Under the pieces are notes generated by a model that did no database searches, was not told the DNA's origin, and saw only the letters and a list, made by a program, of their open reading frames with translations. A stretch of 64,000 nt of DNA from an uncultured Christensenella sp. (GTDB lineage Bacteria; Bacillota; Clostridia; Christensenellales; UBA1242). Below are positions 5,408 through 60,875 of the stretch, piece by piece. The stretch's first letter is position 1. Each line of letters starts with the position of its first letter. The position numbers and the translations under genes are program-made. The stretch lies in NCBI GenBank assembly GCA_964434145.1, contig CAYSUG010000001.1, positions 22,933 to 86,932 of the forward strand. The letters run 5' to 3'.

Positions 5408-5540
5408 AGTGTCTATTGGACAATAGTCCAATACTTCGGGTGGCACGCAGTGACGGGGTCCCGAATACAAGTGAAAGGCTTTTGCGTATACGCAAAAAGA
5501 GTTCTTAGTAATAAGAACTCTTACTCATCTAGCCAAAACG
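5408..5540 (-). ncRNA. unclassified conserved multi-hairpin module, copy 1 (tRNA-linked)
   Basis: It shares the blocks TGCGTATACGCA (5483-5494) and GAATACAAGTGAAA (5463-5476) with copy 2 at 59.9 kb. The stems flanking these blocks differ in sequence between copies but keep their pairing. Strand and RNA status are inferred. Confidence 0.4.
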
Positions 5541-5574: not shown

Positions 5575-5657
5575 TGGTGCGGATGAGAGGACTTGAACCC
5601 CCACTCTTTCGAACTAGATCCTAAGTCTAGCGCGTCTGCCAATTTCGCCACATCCGC
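5575..5657 (-). tRNA. tRNA-Leu (anticodon TAG)
   Basis: Hand-folded: GCGGATG acceptor, long variable arm, anticodon loop CTTAGGA, GGTTCAAGTCC T-arm, encoded CCA. Confidence 0.9.
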
Positions 5658-5660
5658 ATT

Positions 5661-5736
5661 TGGTGACCCATCCGCGATTCGAACGCGGGACACCATGATT
5701 AAAAGTCATGTGCTCTACCAGCTGAGCTAATGGATC
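5661..5736 (-). tRNA. tRNA-Lys (anticodon TTT)
   Basis: Hand-folded: GATCCAT/ATGGGTC acceptor, TAGCTCAGCTGGTAGAGCA D-arm, anticodon loop CTTTTAA, encoded CCA. Confidence 0.9.
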
Positions 5737-5741
5737 GCATT

Positions 5742-5816
5742 TGGCTGGGATGGCAGGATTTGAACCTACGAATGCGAGAGTCAAAGTCTCGTGCCTTACC
5801 GCTTGGCTACACCCCA
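5742..5816 (-). tRNA. tRNA-Gln (anticodon TTG)
   Basis: Hand-folded: TGGGGTG/CATCCCA acceptor, anticodon loop CTTTGAC, encoded CCA. Confidence 0.9.
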
Positions 5817-5905
5817 ATATTCGGTCTATCCTGACAACAATGACATTATACTACAGCAAAACTGTATTGTCAATAGAACTCAATTACTTTTTCAAAAAAA
5901 TAGTG

Positions 5906-5982
5906 TGGGGTGAATAGTGGGACTCGAACCCACGACTTCCAGAGCCACAATCTGGCGCTCTACCAGCTGAACTATATCCACC
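5906..5982 (-). tRNA. tRNA-His (anticodon GTG)
   Basis: Hand-folded: extra 5' G(-1), anticodon stem CCAGA/TCTGG with loop TTGTGGC, encoded CCA. Confidence 0.9.
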
Positions 5983-5998
5983 ATATTTTTTAAAAAAA

Positions 5999-6075
5999 TG
6001 GTGTGCCAGAAGGGATTCGAACCCCTGACCCTCGCCTTAGAAGGGCGATGCTCTATCCAGCTGAGCTACTGGCAC
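5999..6075 (-). tRNA. tRNA-Arg (anticodon TCT)
   Basis: Hand-folded: GTGCCAG/CTGGCAC acceptor, anticodon loop CTTCTAA, encoded CCA. Confidence 0.9.
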
Positions 6076-6094
6076 AAAATAAATACTTTTTGAA

Positions 6095-6168
6095 TGGAGC
6101 GGGTGATGGGAATCGAACCCACGCAGCCAGCTTGGAAGGCTGGAGTACTACCATTGTACTACACCCGC
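6095..6168 (-). tRNA. tRNA-Gly (anticodon TCC)
   Basis: Hand-folded: GCGGGTG/CACCCGC acceptor, anticodon loop CTTCCAA, encoded CCA. Confidence 0.9.
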
Positions 6169-24774: not shown

Positions 24775-25161
24775 ATGAAAAGAGCAATAACCATTATATC
24801 AATCACCACCATTCTTATCGCATTTGCTATAGCAGAACTAATATATGTGAACCAGATCGTAGACTATATGGAAGATAATATCAACGCTATTGCATCGCAA
24901 TACGAGGAGAACAAAGATGATATCACAATACTGGCTGACAAGATTGTAGATATAGACGAATATTGGGATAGCTATGAGAGCATCCTATGTCTAATATTCA
25001 GCCACAAAGACCTAAGTGTCACAACAGATTCCCTTAACAAGCTAATAGCCTATACCAGAAATAACGACTACGACAATGCAATAGCAGAGCTAGAAATGTT
25101 GAAGACATTGGTAGAGAAGAATCATCACATAATGGGATTCAATATACACAATGTTTTATGA
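24775..25161 (+). CDS. DUF4363-like small membrane-anchored protein
   Basis: 128 aa with an N-terminal TM, translationally coupled to the DUF421 gene. This pairing is common in Clostridia. Confidence 0.5.
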   Translation: MKRAITIISITTILIAFAIAELIYVNQIVDYMEDNINAIASQYEENKDDITILADKIVDIDEYWDSYESILCLIFSHKDLSVTTDSLNKLIAYTRNNDYDNAIAELEMLKTLVEKNHHIMGFNIHNVL

Positions 25162-25165
25162 TACT

Positions 25166-25219
25166 ACAAAAAAAATACTTGGTTTGATTATATTTTAATA
25201 ATCCCAAGTATTTTTTTTA
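25166..25219. terminator. bidirectional terminator
   Basis: AATACTTGG...CCAAGTATT hairpin flanked by an A-run and a T-run. Confidence 0.6.
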
Positions 25220-25240
25220 TGTTATATTGATTATATTATC

Positions 25241-25512
25241 GGAAGTTGTAGGAAAGCAGAGCGAAGCAATATTTTCATACAACTGATGTTTATTCAATCT
25301 ATGTATAGGCTGTTATAAAACAGCACTAGAACACGCAAGTGTACATTGTTCGACAGAACAACTTACATAGATTATAATCTAGGAAGTTTATACAAAGTAC
25401 CGAAGGGACCTTGATATAAACTGACGACGTTTTCAATCTATGTGTAGCCATTTCCAATGGCTGTAGTGCGTTAGCACTTTGCAACGCCAGTTGCAATAGC
25501 ACATAGATTATA
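25241..25512. repeat. tandem pair of ~140-nt composite structured elements (candidate ncRNA)
   Basis: Unit A spans 25241-25378 and unit B 25382-25512. Each has a GGAAGTT..AACTGA hairpin followed by a 10-bp closing stem, AATCTATGTR...YACATAGATT, enclosing three small hairpins. Details are in findings. Confidence 0.55.
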
Positions 25513-28131
25513 TTATTCACAAGAATAATACATCGTTGTCCAACCTACGCCGCTTTTGAAATTTCTTGCATTTGCTGCTGGATCAGACAAATCTACATCC
25601 TTGACAAATTTAGAATATTCAACATCGCTATATTGCTTCCACCCAGCAGTATTCTCAAATACTAACTCTGTCAAATAATTCATACCACCAAACGCATTAC
25701 GACCAATTCGCTTCAAACTAGCTGGCAGAGTTAACGAGATAAGGCTGGTATTTAAATTGATACAAAATCCATACTTTTCTATCTCTTCCAATTCAGAATT
25801 AGGTGCAAAAGTAATGGAGCGTGTATAACTATTATCATAGAATGCGTATTCACCAATTGTTTTTAATGAGACTGGCAGTACTAGATCTTGAGGTGTTATC
25901 TTGCCTCGGAAGGCATTTTTTTCCACCCTAGTAATACCTTCGACAATATTTGATTGCGGGCATCCTGCTATCAGAATATTGTCAGCTATTGTAACTATGC
26001 TATTACTACCCTCTGGGCAATAATATATAGTATTGGCAGAATCAACTGTTATAGATGACATATTAGTACAATAATTAGTAATTCCATATCCAATCGATGT
26101 GACTGTAGAAGGAATAGTCAAACTCACTAGAGTTGTTGAAGAAAAACAAGAATCACTAATAGTCACCAATGAACCATTATCTAGATCTAACTCTGTTATT
26201 GGCAAGCCGGTAAAAGCCTCATTATGTATGTATACAACGCCAGCACCCACAACCGTATTCTTGCATGCCGCAATTAACCAATTTTCTTGATTTGTTTTTT
26301 GATTAATAACCGCATTACAAGGAACCTCTACCTTGGTTTCTCCTTCATAATAATACGAGTTGGTAGAATAATATTTGTTGCTACTAGATATAATAATTTC
26401 CTCCAAATCATCACATCCTTGCGTAATCGATGTTCCAATTATCCTAGTCTTTGCTGGAATAGTCAGACTAGTTATCTTTGCATTATAAAACGCCCAGGAT
26501 GAGATATAAACCATACTCTCTGGAAGAACTAATTTAGGATCTTCTGGTTCATAGCCAGAACAAGCATAATTAGCTATCTTTTGCAAGCCTTCATACAAAA
26601 TGGTGCCAGAACAAGCAGCCACTAAAGAATAATAGCCATCAGAACTGTATGTAAATATTCCATTACATTCCTCTCCTGTCAGATGATTCTTACTAGTGTA
26701 TTTAGCATTGTTTTCATCAACGAACAGTGATTCTATATTGCTACAACCGACAAAGGCAGAACTGTTAATAGAATTAACACTTGCTGGGATATAAATGGAT
26801 TCAAGACTAGTACACCCATCGAATACATTACCACCTATTGTTGTCAATCCGGTACCCAAATCAATCGATTGCAGATTAGTACAATAATTAAATGCATAGC
26901 TATTGATCACTTCTACACTATCTGGCAGACTAATATGTTGTATTGCAGTACTAGCGAATACACTAGAACCAATAGTAGTAAGTTGAGAACCCTCTGCAAT
27001 AATTACATTTGTTACACAAAATCCACTTAGAGCATAAGAACCAAGAGTATGAATATTCTTGCCAATATATACTGTTGCTGTATTCTTACAATCAGATAGA
27101 AGGTTATTGCCTGACGACTCTGCATCGGAGATGTATGAGATAGGTTTCTTGCCATTAGTCCCGTTATCGTAATAGTCTGGAATAACCACCTCTGTAATAG
27201 TAGGATCTGCTACTGGCACATTCTTGACATAATAGCAGTCTGCCACCTTGTCATAAACAATATTTTCCGGAATATTACATGCCTTGTATACTGGATATAG
27301 CGCTACAGACTCTGCTGCCTTGTAAGGGAAGGTTATAGTCTCTGTAGCATTCTCGCCCACTCCCCAACCTACGAAGACCTCTGTATCACGAACTGGATAT
27401 ATCTTTGGTGCCTCTATAGCAGTCGCAGCTGGCAGTGTAGATGTAATGTATGCAGCATCTGCCTGCAGTCCACTATCATTGGCCATTGCGTTATATGTAA
27501 TGGTGACAGTAGTTATATCCTTTCGGGTCAACGACCAGTTGAAATTACCCGCGATATTGGCATCTGCCAGTATGTTATTAACATCTGCAACAATATAGAC
27601 ATACTTCACATTATATGTGTAGGCGTCACTCATAAGAATCTGTCTAGTATAACTATCTTCTAGAGTTAACGCTGTTCCATCTTGCAGCGTCATAGCGTCA
27701 TAGTCTACAACTGGCTCGTCTGAATATGCATATGATAGAGTGAAGTTATCCGTAATCGTCAACTCATTGGTGTGATCGATATATGCATTAATACTATGGC
27801 TAAGGTTAGTAAATATGTATTCGAACACGATTCTTGAATCTGATACTGCAAGCGTCGTGTCGCTATTAGGCTGAGACAGATTTCCTTCCATAATCTCTGC
27901 ATTTAGCTCTAGATATGTAGAGTCACCGTTTTTAAAAGGATATGTTGTATTATTGTCACGCAAGTTCGCCTCCATCTTAACAAACACATCTGTTGCCTCA
28001 TATTTCATCTTCACTTGCGTATTAGCCGACTGGTTGGACGCAACTAGCACAAGAATTAATCCTGTAATTACGCCAACAACGGCTATGCAGAGTGCAGCTA
28101 TTATTATAACAAGCTTTTTGTTAGAACTCAT
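25513..28131 (-). CDS. large cell-surface protein with BspA-type leucine-rich repeats
   Basis: N-terminal signal anchor (MSSNKKLVIIIAALCIAVVGVITGLILVLV). The C-terminal ~550 aa consist of LRR_5-like units (IP.SV..IG..AF..C..L). Start assigned at 28131 after an AGGAGA RBS. Confidence 0.75.
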   Translation of the reverse strand: MSSNKKLVIIIAALCIAVVGVITGLILVLVASNQSANTQVKMKYEATDVFVKMEANLRDNNTTYPFKNGDSTYLELNAEIMEGNLSQPNSDTTLAVSDSRIVFEYIFTNLSHSINAYIDHTNELTITDNFTLSYAYSDEPVVDYDAMTLQDGTALTLEDSYTRQILMSDAYTYNVKYVYIVADVNNILADANIAGNFNWSLTRKDITTVTITYNAMANDSGLQADAAYITSTLPAATAIEAPKIYPVRDTEVFVGWGVGENATETITFPYKAAESVALYPVYKACNIPENIVYDKVADCYYVKNVPVADPTITEVVIPDYYDNGTNGKKPISYISDAESSGNNLLSDCKNTATVYIGKNIHTLGSYALSGFCVTNVIIAEGSQLTTIGSSVFASTAIQHISLPDSVEVINSYAFNYCTNLQSIDLGTGLTTIGGNVFDGCTSLESIYIPASVNSINSSAFVGCSNIESLFVDENNAKYTSKNHLTGEECNGIFTYSSDGYYSLVAACSGTILYEGLQKIANYACSGYEPEDPKLVLPESMVYISSWAFYNAKITSLTIPAKTRIIGTSITQGCDDLEEIIISSSNKYYSTNSYYYEGETKVEVPCNAVINQKTNQENWLIAACKNTVVGAGVVYIHNEAFTGLPITELDLDNGSLVTISDSCFSSTTLVSLTIPSTVTSIGYGITNYCTNMSSITVDSANTIYYCPEGSNSIVTIADNILIAGCPQSNIVEGITRVEKNAFRGKITPQDLVLPVSLKTIGEYAFYDNSYTRSITFAPNSELEEIEKYGFCINLNTSLISLTLPASLKRIGRNAFGGMNYLTELVFENTAGWKQYSDVEYSKFVKDVDLSDPAANARNFKSGVGWTTMYYSCE

Positions 28132-28267
28132 TACATCTATTCTCCTATAATAATATTGTGCCACAATAAGACACAATTTAACATACATATTTTACATTTT
28201 CTAATACTATTTAGCAAACAAATACAGCAATATTAGAAATTTTGCAAACCTACCTACAACAAAGGCA

Positions 28268-28295
28268 AAAAAACCAGACGCATAGTCTGGCAGTA
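28268..28295 (-). terminator. Rho-independent terminator
   Basis: CCAGACTATGCGTCTGG hairpin plus TTTTTTT on the minus strand. Confidence 0.75.
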
Positions 28296-28303
28296 TAATC
28301 ATA

Positions 28304-58584: not shown

Positions 58585-59295
58585 ATGATCGGATTTGTTA
58601 TTGCTATGGAAAAAGAATGCAATGCCTTCTTAAATAAACTAAAAACAACTAAAGAATATGACTTCGCTGGTAAAAAATTCGTTAAGAGCGAGTTAGGTAG
58701 TAGCGAAATAATTGTAGGAATTGCAGGCATAGGCAAAGTTAATTCTGCAATGACAACCCAATTAATGATAGACAAATTTGCCCCAGAACTAATAATAAAT
58801 TTTGGCTTCGCTGGAGGCAAAGAAGGAAGTGGGTTAAAAGCTGGAGACATTGTGTTACTGGACAAAGTCTGTCAATACGATTTTGATTTAAGCGAAGTAG
58901 ATGATGTAAATATTGGATATATGCAAGACTATGACACCACATACTACAACACAGATTACTCGCTTTATAACGGAAATGCTTTTAAAATACGCACCGGTGC
59001 CACTGGCGACAGATTCACCAGCCAGAAATATTTTCTAGATATTATTCGGCAACTAAATGCACAAGTAGTAGATATGGAAGCTTGTGCAATTGCACAAGTA
59101 GTAGATATGGAAGCTTGTGCAATTGCACAAGTATGTCAAGCAAATGACATACCTGTTATAAGTATTAAATTAATCTCTGATGTAGATGGAATGGATGTAA
59201 ATATCTTTGAACAATACAAAGGCAACAGCAATGCAATAAACGATAAATTTGTACTCGCAATAACAGACCTAATGGACAACATAATAAACAATTAA
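58585..59295 (+). CDS. mtnN: 5'-methylthioadenosine/S-adenosylhomocysteine nucleosidase carrying an in-frame 33-bp tandem duplication
   Basis: Motifs GIGKVNSA, FGFAGG, GDRF and VDMEACAIAQV are present. The last motif is duplicated. Confidence 0.85.
   Translation: MIGFVIAMEKECNAFLNKLKTTKEYDFAGKKFVKSELGSSEIIVGIAGIGKVNSAMTTQLMIDKFAPELIINFGFAGGKEGSGLKAGDIVLLDKVCQYDFDLSEVDDVNIGYMQDYDTTYYNTDYSLYNGNAFKIRTGATGDRFTSQKYFLDIIRQLNAQVVDMEACAIAQVVDMEACAIAQVCQANDIPVISIKLISDVDGMDVNIFEQYKGNSNAINDKFVLAITDLMDNIINN
59065..59130 (+). repeat. perfect 33-bp tandem duplication inside mtnN
   Basis: GTAGTAGATATGGAAGCTTGTGCAATTGCACAA occurs at 59065-59097 and again at 59098-59130. Confidence 0.95.
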
Positions 59296-59863: not shown

Positions 59864-59975
59864 ACAGATGTGAGGCAATTTTCTGCACGGCAAGTTTACT
59901 TGCGGGAGTGCAGAATACAAGTGAAACTCCCCTGCGTATACGCAACGACAGCATGGAATGCTGTCTGTCATCTGT
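59864..59975 (-). ncRNA. unclassified conserved multi-hairpin module, copy 2 (tRNA-linked)
   Basis: Contains TGCGTATACGCA (59933-59944) and GAATACAAGTGAAA (59913-59926), identical to copy 1. Hairpins at 59947-59965 and 59881-59915 differ in sequence from copy 1 but occupy the same positions. Confidence 0.4.
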
Positions 59976-60187: not shown

Positions 60188-60724
60188 TTATTTTTTGTAT
60201 TCTTTACATTTCTTCTCCAAAAGTTTAAAGTCCACAACACAATCTAAATATTTACTATGTTCCGATACTTTATATTTTCCTATCTTTTGATTATAAATAA
60301 TATTTGCTTTTCTTACTATTTCCTTTCTATTTTTAGTAATAAAATCTAATTCTTTTATCACAAGAGTTTTGTAATTTAAATCTTTTTCATTGTTTGGATT
60401 TACTTTAGTTAATGCAATATCATTTATAGGTATCATATTACCCAAAAGTATTTTTCCCTTCATTTCATCTATATTCTTATCATTCTTTACTACTATTCTT
60501 GTTAAAAATATTGGGTCCTTTCGAATTGAGCCATCAGCATTAAAGTCCTTTTGCTTAGGACTAGATAATGGAGCAAAAAATTTACAATCATTTACTTGTA
60601 TTACTGCACCAATATACTTTCTAGCATGTTTTCTTTTTCCAATTTTGTTATCACTTACATGAGAATCAAATTTTCTCAAATATTGAATATAGTCATCATC
60701 AACATTATATAAATATATTTTCAT
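60188..60724 (-). CDS. type III toxin-antitoxin system toxin, ToxN/AbiQ-family endoribonuclease
   Basis: 178 aa from MKIYLYNVDDDYIQYLRKFDSHV. It matches my recollection of AbiQ/ToxN: F..V...YI.YL..FD..V, YIG.V......FFAPLSSPK, and a C-terminal C.VDF..LEKK. Confidence 0.8.
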   Translation of the reverse strand: MKIYLYNVDDDYIQYLRKFDSHVSDNKIGKRKHARKYIGAVIQVNDCKFFAPLSSPKQKDFNADGSIRKDPIFLTRIVVKNDKNIDEMKGKILLGNMIPINDIALTKVNPNNEKDLNYKTLVIKELDFITKNRKEIVRKANIIYNQKIGKYKVSEHSKYLDCVVDFKLLEKKCKEYKK

Positions 60725-60740
60725 AAAATTCTTCCTTTGA

Positions 60741-60776
60741 ATAAAAATGAGCAAGGCGACTTTTGCCCTGCTCATT
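60741..60776 (-). terminator. terminator between antitoxin repeats and toxin gene
   Basis: AATGAGCAGGGC-AAAAGT-CGCCTTGCTCATT hairpin followed by TTTTAT on the minus strand. Confidence 0.75.
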
Positions 60777-60780
60777 ACTT

Positions 60781-60875
60781 CCTTCTGAGGAGAGGAATTC
60801 CACCTTTTACAGTTTCCCACTAAGGTAGGGTTCTCCAATCATACAGTTTCCCACTAAGGTAGGGTTCTCCGCCAA
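60781..60875 (-). ncRNA. ToxI/antiQ-like antitoxin RNA: 34-nt tandem repeats (2 perfect cores plus a degenerate partial unit)
   Basis: TACAGTTTCCCACTAAGGTAGGGTTCTCC occurs at 60808-60836 and 60842-60870, a 34-nt period. A degenerate partial unit lies at 60781-60807. The position relative to promoter, terminator and toxin matches type III TA loci. Confidence 0.75.

Follow-up and report, generated by a model that had tools for sequence, protein, structure and literature searches.

The locus and its two structured units

The window analyzed here is a stretch of 64 000 nucleotides (nt) from an uncultured Christensenella sp. (GenBank assembly GCA_964434145.1, contig CAYSUG010000001.1, positions 22 933 to 86 932), a Clostridia-like chromosome of 36% G+C that carries YetF/DUF421, DUF4363, DUF3792 and Ppx/GppA genes and a tRNA cluster. 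Between its DUF4363 gene and a minus-strand gene for a BspA-type leucine-rich-repeat (LRR) protein of 891 amino acids (25513–28188; LRR_5 match with E = 2.8e-76) lie two structured units, A and B, arranged head-to-tail, which are the subject of this report. Both are members of an undescribed, lineage-restricted family of non-coding, dispersed, array-forming repeats of ∼140–150 bp.

On the plus strand each unit consists of the block GGAAG, a hairpin P1, a linker and a stem P2 that encloses three further hairpins, P3 to P5, an architecture recovered by folding with RNA as well as DNA parameters. In unit A (25241–25373), GGAAGT occupies 25241–25246, the P1 hairpin 25244–25284 with GCGAAGC at its apex, and the linker GATGTTTATTC 25285–25295; P2 is formed by 25296–25305 paired with 25364–25373, and it closes P3 (∼25309–25325), P4 (25332–25343, loop GCAA) and P5 (25347–25362, loop GACA). 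The corresponding parts of unit B (25382–25509) are GGAAGT at 25382–25387, P1 at 25385–25422 with the apex CCGAAGG, the linker GACGACGTTTTC at 25423–25434, P2 (25435–25444 paired with 25500–25509), P3 (∼25445–25463), P4 (∼25465–25478, loop GTTA) and P5 (∼25479–25496, loop GCCA). Counted from GGAAG to GATT, the units measure 133 and 128 nt, and in both of them P1 is flanked by GGAAGTT and AACTGA. The 10-bp P2 reads AATCTATGTR/YACATAGATT, with an A–T to G–C compensatory pair between A and B. This tandem architecture at 25241–25512, together with the compensatory pair, had been described in an earlier note made from the letters of the window; both are present in the sequence and the folds reproduce the architecture.

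Folding of the 285-nt region with RNA parameters gave z-scores of −7.53 for the plus strand and −6.59 for the minus strand, and with DNA parameters −10.56 and −8.63, respectively (200 shuffles). None of the 200 shuffles folds as well as the native region, and the minimum free energy folds give the unit architecture on either strand. The pattern GGAAGTT..AACTGA occurs three times in the window, against 0.09 expected; no further copy of the element was found within it.

The 3-nt distance to the LRR gene given in the earlier note holds, with 25509 as the last position of P2 in unit B and 25513–25515 as the stop codon (TTA on the plus strand). Both units sit antisense in the 3′ untranslated region (UTR) of the LRR gene. 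On the other side of the array, a perfect long stem between an A-run and a T-run (25166–25219) resembles the bidirectional terminator that the note had proposed, and it looks like one that serves the DUF4363 gene on the plus strand and, through the inserted units, the LRR gene on the minus strand.

Distribution of the family

The pattern TTCAATCTATGT-N40–70-ACATAGATT, scanned over one genome per species, gave 34 loci, ∼30 of them with complete architecture, in nine uncultured Clostridia metagenome-assembled genomes (MAGs; species-level genomes) sampled from the human gut (Hadza and others), yak caecum and elsewhere. One of these MAGs is labeled Christensenellales, and a single MAG holds 10 loci; carrier species include CAKVHV, CAKVID, CAKVHF, DOEE01/UBA11490 and SVIC01/SIG400. 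A profile search with nhmmer returned 58 unit matches in arrays of one to five units, a covariance model retrieved 45 units at E < 1e-10, and a metagenome scan with the pattern of the unit–unit junction added two arrays; units A and B match the model with 72.3 bits (E = 1.6e-13) and 68.4 bits (E = 1.2e-12), respectively. Every array is head-to-tail and intergenic, solo units are common, and the units measure 140–150 bp, with 31–44% G+C and several hairpins each.

The neighboring genes are unrelated housekeeping genes, for example rpsI, rplQ, der, dnaN, rny, thiI and the gene for pyruvate:ferredoxin oxidoreductase, and the downstream gene lies on the same strand as the units in 18 cases and on the opposite strand in 14. 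The picture of a lone structured RNA tied to the LRR gene, drawn in the earlier note, is therefore replaced by that of a multi-copy dispersed repeat found in either orientation. Arrays that share a contig agree with the contig-majority orientation in 20 of 22 instances (e.g. on DOEE01000003.1, SVIC01000004.1 and CAKVID010000004.1), and this shared orientation fits neither local GC skew nor gene strand nor a simple replichore rule.

Whole-unit relatives of unit A occur at loci L033 (148–280; the closest, with 77% identity) and L013, and those of unit B at L019 (the closest, also with 77% identity) and L033 (289–418). At L033 the order is reversed, the third unit there being like unit A and the second like unit B. 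The inner hairpins are indeed unrelated between A and B, as the earlier note had it, but this does not extend to the family, each of the two units being ∼77% identical to a relative in another genome.

No partner gene accompanies the repeats. All-against-all clustering of the open reading frames (ORFs) in the flanks of 30 loci returned pairs of orthologous loci only, without transposase or integrase, and no ORF lies between P1 and P2 in any of 39 pattern matches or 58 profile matches. BLAST searches of phage and plasmid collections with the element and its surroundings gave no match, and three pattern scans of viral contigs gave no copy. In the literature, nothing comparable to dispersed dif-like structured repeats was found, which is not proof of absence.

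Some loci have layouts of their own. At L033, arrays of the same orientation (three units in 145–575 and one in 2436–2585) bracket a 1.86-kb segment, within 145–2585, that contains a small helix-turn-helix gene and a gene for a membrane-anchored repeat protein of 512 aa; the start of another LRR-protein gene follows 220 nt further on, and the layout resembles a cassette between directly repeated sites. At L008 (4797–4977), one unit lacks the 3′ strand of P2, which is replaced by two copies of the direct repeat ACACATTCCTTAT, followed by the new 5′ boundary TTGATTATATTATC of the next array, in what looks like a decayed or rearranged junction. At L005, a tRNA gene (786–873) lies ∼60 nt downstream of a divergent solo unit (590–724).

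Conservation of the fold and of its strand

Each unit folds independently into P1 and P2[P3, P4, P5]. To assess conservation, 45 units were aligned to a covariance model built from 12 units with a hand-set structure, so that the alignment, being fitted to the model, is biased towards structure. Standard pairs are formed in 91.5% of cells, compared with 74.8% in column shuffles and 34–43% when the 3′ partner is slid, and the covariation score is 0.412, compared with 0.133 and 0.04–0.08, respectively. Changes on both sides are seen in 37 of 49 pairs, and none of 500 shuffles reaches any of the observed measures. The subfamilies have entirely different P1, P3, P4 and P5 sequences, which makes the conclusion robust despite the model-fitted alignment, and divergent copies also differ in P2 (e.g. 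TTGTGTC/GGCACAA at L005). Conserved pairing with divergent sequence, first noted from two units, thus has statistical support from 45 homologs. One strand of each unit is under selection for a long hairpin, P1, and a four-way junction in which P2 closes P3 to P5.

Of the two strands, the one that reads GGAAG...ACATAGATT folds more stably in 43 of 46 units under RNA parameters and in 41 of 46 under DNA parameters, although these counts come from units that are not independent. On this strand the P4 loop is of the G..A type in ∼40 of 45 units (GATA, GGTA, GTTA, GAAA and others) and the P1 apices are frequently C-GAA-G. The preference for the plus strand expressed in the earlier note on the grounds of such loops is borne out. 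The nature of the pairs says less: G·U pairs (78) are not clearly commoner than A·C mismatches (62), and pair types accordingly leave the choice between RNA and DNA unsettled.

A dif-like site at unit junctions

Three blocks are conserved across subfamilies, namely ACATAG(ATT) at the 3′ end, GGAAGT and, immediately upstream of the latter, a TATAWT box; these abut at every unit–unit junction. The junction reads TTACATAG-ATTATA-(TTATC or ATCTA)GGAAGT on the plus strand and ACTTCCGATAA-TATAAT-CTATGTAA or ACTTCCTAGAT-TATAAT-CTATGTAA on the minus strand, with the C-arm consensus ACTTCC(G/T)A(T/G)A(A/T); the form ACTTCCGATAA-TATAAT-CTATGTAAT was likewise among the dif-type sites tested. In other words, the junction is a site of 25–28 bp in the layout of dif: an 11-nt XerC/CodV-type arm, an AT-rich 6-bp spacer and a XerD/RipX-type arm.

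The published dif sites used for comparison include those of Bacillus subtilis (ACTTCCTAGAATATATATTATGTAAACT), Macrococcus (ACTTCCGATAATATATATTATGTAAACT), Desulforudis (ACTTCCGATAATAGATATTATGTTGCCT) and Desulfotomaculum (AGTTCCGATAATAAGTATTATGTAAACT) (PMC3025954, Table S1). Junction 28-mers agree with one or another of 15 published Firmicutes sites, which may differ from the dif of the host, at 21–22 of 28 positions, whereas random 28-mers from the same loci agree at 10.1 on average and reach at least 20 in 5.5e-5 of draws. The C-arm ACTTCCGATAA is identical (11/11) to that of Desulforudis and Macrococcus dif; ACTTCCTAGA agrees with the B. subtilis arm, and TATGTAA follows at the correct 6-bp spacing. 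With a position weight matrix (PWM) derived from the 15 sites, unit junctions account for 5 of the 7 top positions among 712 000.

In the window, the complete dif-like site lies at the A/B junction (25363–25387, plus strand), with the D-arm TTACATAG at 25363–25370, the central ATTATA at 25371–25376 and the C-arm ATCTAGGAAGT at 25377–25387. Its minus strand, ACTTCCTAGAT-TATAAT-CTATGTAA, matches the B. subtilis site at 22 of 28 positions. The same junction also scores as a sigma-70-like promoter (TCGACA-17-TATAAT, 11/12). The earlier note had taken conserved pairing as a sign of structured RNA rather than of a protein-binding repeat; this preference is not upheld, as those blocks whose conservation does not depend on pairing coincide with the two arms and the spacer of a dif-like site, which points to DNA-level recombination rather than to RNA catalysis.

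Outside true junctions, the best pseudo-dif (16.2 bits) is the 5′ boundary ACTTCCGATAATATATTCTTAGTTAACA of a unit at L027 (6914–7998). A neighboring gene there looks like that for the large subunit of a phage terminase, and the element may sit at a prophage end.

Array boundaries, insertion and growth

At the ends of arrays only part of the site is retained. The consensus holds at 5′ boundaries from site position ∼9–12 onward (spacer and C-arm) and at 3′ boundaries up to position ∼15–17 (D-arm and spacer). The sequence common to both ends is ATTATA(W), which in between a quarter and a third of arrays reaches a few bases (often 3–5 nt) into either arm. Recombination in the spacer between a circle that carries one site and a target of weak similarity to it would be expected to leave such a pattern.

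Both boundaries in the window are such hybrids. The 5′ boundary (25222–25246, plus strand) has a degenerate D-arm TTATATTG (25222–25229), ATTATA (25230–25235) and an intact C-arm TTATCGGAAGT (25236–25246), and its minus strand, ACTTCCGATAA-TATAAT-CAATATAA, shows two mismatches to the junction consensus. The 3′ boundary (25499–25523, plus strand) has an intact D-arm GCACATAG (25499–25506), ATTATA (25507–25512) and a degenerate C-arm TTATTCACAAG (25513–25523), the latter being the stop and last codons of the LRR gene in reverse. The hybrids therefore imply an ancestral target TTATATTG-ATTATA-TTATTCACAAG, located between the LRR stop codon and the terminator. They also shift the limits of the array: the unit coordinates of the earlier note stand, but the unit begins ∼11 nt earlier (25230) and the array ends at ∼25523, with flanks that resemble recombination sites.

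Comparison among loci shows how arrays are built. For 22 of 24 arrayed units, the closest relative is found at another locus or in another genome (mean identity 0.84, compared with 0.60 to the neighbor). Because neighbors are less alike than distant units, array growth comes from units inserted one after another next to a site already present, not from tandem duplication. The thiI–rny spacer contains two units in DOEE01, CAKVHV and L039 (a 98%-identical Logan contig) and none in relatives with 84% and 76% ThiI identity; where filled, the array lies between the thiI stop codon and the terminator, antisense to thiI, as in the window.

In relatives of the window locus (L035 and L038, with 75–77% DUF4363 identity), the DUF4363 and DUF3792 genes converge on one terminator only, whereas the window adds two units and the LRR gene between them (25166–28303). 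The LRR gene, with its own promoter region, is accessory and strain-specific, being absent from the syntenic locus of the relatives, and a homolog search with its protein returned none above 38% identity. No second full dif-like site was found beyond it (28189–28303), and the composition of the inserted segment (25.2–28.3 kb) is not atypical. The insertion that holds the LRR gene also contains a second terminator-like hairpin, CCAGACGCATAGTCTGG (∼28276–28292).

Pairing of the site within the fold

The conserved site is in part built into the fold. P2 is a duplex of the D-arm, which pairs perfectly, and three spacer bases (TTACATAGATT/AATCTATGTAA). The outer C-arm is also paired, GGA with a TTC just before P2 and AGTT with the AACT at the base of P1, a base that covaries across subtypes (AGTT/AACT versus AGATT/AATCT); the inner C-arm (ATATTATC) and the remainder of the spacer are left bulged. 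The partner of the arms, AACTGATGTTTATTCAATCTATGTAA, is a same-length inverted copy of the junction minus strand AACTTCCGATAATATAATCTATGTAA, identical to it at 19 of 26 positions by our own comparison. A unit therefore holds two inverted dif-like sequences ∼60 nt apart. Subtypes b and c have a far weaker inverted copy, so that the likeness to the attP(+) of CTX phage, which is formed by two such sites, is partial.

Proposed mechanism and competing explanations

There is about an even chance, in our estimation, that the family consists of miniature Xer-type integrative elements with a single-strand fold that resembles CTX phage attP(+). Their movement would be the work of a tyrosine recombinase of the Xer type, with the 6-bp spacer as its place of action. 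A unit would bring one site, probably in the form of a circle or of a folded single strand, and its partner would be the site beside an existing unit, which gives rise to mosaic arrays, or else an AT-rich intergenic pseudo-site, typically between a stop codon and a terminator. The folded single strand may itself be the substrate of the recombinase; the single-stranded form is a likely one because the layout of the fold resembles the ∼150-nt CTX attP(+), or an attC with a branched terminal structure. The pair in the window would have inserted at the pseudo-site TTATATTG-ATTATA-TTATTCACAAG, between the stop of the strain-specific LRR gene and the terminator, and any effect on the LRR gene, through 3′-UTR structure or the outward promoter TCGACA-17-TATAAT, would be a by-product. 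In its fullest form, to which we give appreciably less credence, the proposal is that these are the smallest known Xer-exploiting mobile elements, that is, non-coding, self-folding single-stranded dif mimics of ∼140 nt, made up of hardly anything beyond a D-arm duplex, a bulged spacer and a branched terminal structure, that colonize pseudo-dif sites genome-wide via the host dimer-resolution recombinases and stack into mosaic arrays.

Three other explanations deserve weighing. One is that the units are cis-acting RNA modules or genes for structured RNAs which have spread as a gene family and have a role as small RNA, protein sponge, RNA stabilizer or processing signal. This would suit the strong covariation, the better folding of the plus strand and the GNNA/GNA loops on that strand, and bcr1 of the Bacillus cereus group sets an example as a transcribed repeat of ∼155 bp with compensatory changes (PMC3184786). 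Such genes, if they exist, might use the TATAWT box upstream of GGAAG for their transcription, and P5 of the unit before would supply a −35-like hexamer. The promoter match across the A/B junction is of this kind, TGAACA-18-TATAAT or TATATT recurs in the main subfamilies, and some terminal units lie immediately upstream of a ribosome-binding site and ATG (L001, L022, L002 and L020); however, solo units lack a conserved −35. No unit has an intrinsic terminator, the orientation to genes is mixed (antisense in the 3′ UTR in the window and at thiI), G·U pairs are not favored over A·C mismatches and no Rfam relative exists. The arms and spacer of a dif-like site are, moreover, something that an RNA has no reason to mimic. 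On balance an RNA family appears improbable. Far more so are tandem self-cleaving ribozymes (hammerhead-, hairpin- or twister-sister-like) that would process a multimeric transcript into unit-length or circular RNAs. The four-way junction in head-to-tail arrays and the CUGAUG or CUGACGA after P1 recall them, and by our own reading UUCAAUCUAUGU would find its pairing partner in the 5′ GAA taken together with the 3′ ACAUAGAUU of a unit, as in a circularly closed molecule. Yet the junction nucleotides are few and not conserved, solo units are common, and no ribozyme family matches at E ≤ 10 on the window region or at E ≤ 1 on three other loci, which leaves this explanation a very slim chance.

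The remaining candidate, on a par with the RNA family and likewise doubtful, is a non-autonomous transposon, either a miniature transposable element with inverted repeats (MITE) or a palindrome-associated transposable element (PATE), with a transposase encoded elsewhere and a resemblance to dif that is coincidental or reflects target mimicry. The enzyme could be a single-strand transposase of the HUH type (IS200/IS605 or RAYT), which would recognize the hairpins and insert 3′ of ATTATA, or a DDE enzyme with a strong preference for an ATTATA target that it duplicates, comparable to the 5-bp repeats on either side of bcr1. Strand-specific folding, absence of terminal inverted repeats, AT-rich ends, head-to-tail arrays and intergenic dispersal all fit the ‘peel and paste’ mode of IS200/IS605. 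The ends of IS200/IS605 elements carry similar hairpins, whereas the end structures of the units, P1 and the P2 domain, are unlike each other. Of the features of a PATE, a fixed AT-rich sequence before every unit and strand-specific folding are present, while the end structures are dissimilar and no transposase occurs within the ∼300 kb of flanks. Indeed, no ORF lies between P1 and P2, and no transposase-like family recurs in these flanks. The repeat bcr1 offers a parallel here as well, with ∼155 bp, 5-bp flanking direct repeats and a two-hairpin fold kept by compensatory changes (PMC3184786). The site itself also tells against a transposon: similarity at the boundaries often continues past ATTATA for 3–5 nt into both arms, a pattern not to be had from fixed transposon ends, and a 21–22/28 match to dif in the correct 11-6-11 layout is very unlikely by chance.

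Several known classes were tried and rejected. Rfam returned the six tRNAs only for the window at the gathering threshold, chance microRNA-like matches to the terminator hairpin only for 25100–25650 at E ≤ 10, and nothing on the elements of L005, L009 and L033 at E ≤ 1, in line with the failure of the earlier note to recognize a ribozyme or riboswitch. Inspection by eye found CUGAUG without the A9, GAAA and correctly placed stems of a hammerhead core, and a ‘UAUAUUA’ shared with loop B of the hairpin ribozyme but lacking the opposing loop strand. A classical MITE does not fit, since the ends of a unit, ATATTATCGGAAGTT on the 5′ side and ...TTACATAGATT(ATA) on the 3′ side, do not form inverted repeats and the flanking direct repeat is invariant (ATTATA, up to 11 nt as GATTATATTAT) instead of a locus-variable target duplication; always the same sequence, it is therefore a fixed core. 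Repetitive extragenic palindromes and their mosaics (REP/BIME) are 20–40 bp, usually G+C-rich palindromes with a GTAG/CGTC tag and often alternate, unlike these longer, multi-hairpin, always head-to-tail units. A known MITE or REP family, which the earlier note had named among the findings that would speak against RNA, is thus approached in spirit only: the repeats form a dispersed family, but not a known one, and without inverted repeats or target duplications. Integrative mobile elements exploiting Xer (IMEX) at the chromosomal dif were set aside, as copies lie at at least 30 unrelated intergenic loci. The consensus RYYYAAC...GTTRRRY for the R″/R′ boxes of an integron attC is absent, the AAC/GTT triplets at the base of P1 being the sole part that agrees with it; neither R/L boxes of the attC kind nor K-turn motifs in P1 gave a consistent match. 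Base-pairing between leader and linker, tested by hand, was inconsistent between subtypes.

Recombination by Xer meets difficulties of its own. Known Xer-exploiting elements integrate at the single chromosomal dif and not at dozens of sites, and Xer normally requires both arms on both partners, while the reconstructed pseudo-sites only weakly resemble dif arms. The junction itself is an imperfect match (21–22/28) and scores 13–18 bits with the PWM, compared with 28–41 bits for real dif sites, since it departs from these at the innermost base of the D-arm and in half of the spacer; in the unit fold the inner C-arm is unpaired, unlike in CTX attP(+). Were the sites active, direct repeats of them at a distance of 150 bp should lead to the loss of units, but arrays are maintained at orthologous loci of different species (L025/L029 and L004/L031). 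A strain-level empty site with a base-precise junction was not recovered, the thiI–rny comparison being between species only, with diverged flanks. The boundary pattern could also come from a target-specific transposase that duplicates ATTATA, or from an HUH enzyme that inserts 3′ of it. Finally, the folding strand lies in negative GC skew in 25 of 36 arrays, a weak bias in a small, partly redundant and non-independent sample, and the pair counts given above show no clear strand asymmetry. All these points weigh against Xer.

If Xer is nevertheless responsible, the machinery of chromosome dimer resolution would be parasitized outside the terminus by elements of ∼140 nt, and the principle of the folded single-strand substrate would extend to Gram-positive gut anaerobes. 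The abundant uncultured Clostridia of the human and animal gut would then harbor dozens of potential recombination sites per genome, with consequences for genome plasticity, for assembly breaks in MAGs and for the mobility of surface-protein genes. Should the fullest form of the proposal be correct, the units would represent a third kind of folded single-stranded DNA substrate for tyrosine recombinases, besides integron attC and CTX attP(+), and may supply recombination sites that help accessory genes to move, such as the adjacent LRR surface-protein gene. Whatever the mechanism, the family is a clean structured repeat with covariation support, which neither Rfam nor the searched phage and plasmid collections contain. 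It serves as a warning, too: a conserved structure, even with compensatory changes, need not mean an RNA gene.

Other repeats in the window

Further repeated sequences were seen in the window. On the minus strand at 60808–60870, an exact 29-nt tandem pair, GGAGAACCCTACCTTAGTGGGAAACTGTA ×2 with a period of 34 nt and a hairpin CCCTACC..GTGGG in each copy, lies between a promoter-like TTGACT...TATCAT and the start of the ORF 60188–60838; it has no Rfam match and could provide binding sites for an RNA- or DNA-binding regulator. A 41-nt repeat (...GAATACAAGTGAAA...TGCGTATACGCAA) is found at 5455–5495 and 59905–59945 with 80% identity and without an Rfam match at E ≤ 1. One of the copies is situated immediately downstream of the six-gene tRNA cluster (minus strand, 5578–6168), and two terminator-like hairpins follow the other; the copies may be paralogous small RNAs or leader elements. 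Lastly, a 33-nt tandem duplication (97% identity; 59055–59120) inside the ORF 58585–59295 gives an in-frame 11-aa repeat.

Relation to known systems

By analogy, the closest systems in how the element would work are the attP(+) of CTX-type IMEX and the attC sites of integrons. CTX-type phages integrate as a folded single strand of ∼150 nt formed by two inverted dif-like sites and used by XerCD (PMC5357621). Like the CTX attP(+) of Vibrio cholerae, the element has XerC- and XerD-type arms in a dif-like site, head-to-tail arrays after successive integrations and no integrase of its own; in part it also resembles attP(+) in that inverted dif-like sequences, two in number and separated by a few tens of nt, pair in a ∼150-nt single-strand fold with an imperfect central region (PMC5357621). 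The differences are considerable. CTX is a 7-kb single-stranded DNA phage that integrates only at the chromosomal dif, whereas here the whole element is a ∼140-nt fold that encodes nothing and occupies dozens of intergenic sites in Clostridia. The D-arm is the well-paired one in the units and the C-arm in CTX, and the terminal structure of the element is a covarying three-hairpin junction with a second long hairpin; no phage relative was found.

Integron attC sites work as a folded single strand made of imperfect inverted repeats, in which the boxes form recombinase-binding stems around an unpaired spacer and a variable terminal structure; they follow the stop codon of a gene and recombine with weak secondary sites. 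The units likewise have imperfect inverted repeats, conserved boxes as stems, an unpaired spacer, a variable or branched terminal structure and a position after a stop codon. They differ from attC in being mostly without cassette ORFs, in having arms that resemble dif and in the absence of an integron integrase or attI nearby.

In genome appearance, the nearest parallels would be structured mosaic repeats of the bcr1, BOX and NIME (Neisseria intergenic mosaic element) type and, conceptually, the pdif modules of Acinetobacter. Like bcr1, BOX, REP/BIME and NIME, the units are ∼150-bp non-coding, intergenic, multi-copy and lineage-restricted repeats, and like the bcr1 type they have a two-domain compensatory fold, short AT-rich direct repeats at their ends and mosaic arrays (PMC3184786). 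A lineage-specific intergenic repeat of ∼150 bp with a compensatory fold and short flanking direct repeats can be called bcr1-like, a descriptive class that claims no homology and no sequence similarity to bcr1. The four-way junction, the strictly head-to-tail order of dissimilar units and the dif-like ends set the family apart; for bcr1, BOX and REP no dif-like site is reported. The pdif/dif modules of Acinetobacter plasmids are likewise reported to have many Xer-site look-alikes per replicon that bound shuffled modules (e.g. PMC10132070, PMC13141974). These modules carry genes, are plasmid-borne and have sites in alternating orientation. The units described here, in contrast, are non-coding and chromosomal, with directly repeated full sites, and are constrained as single strands.

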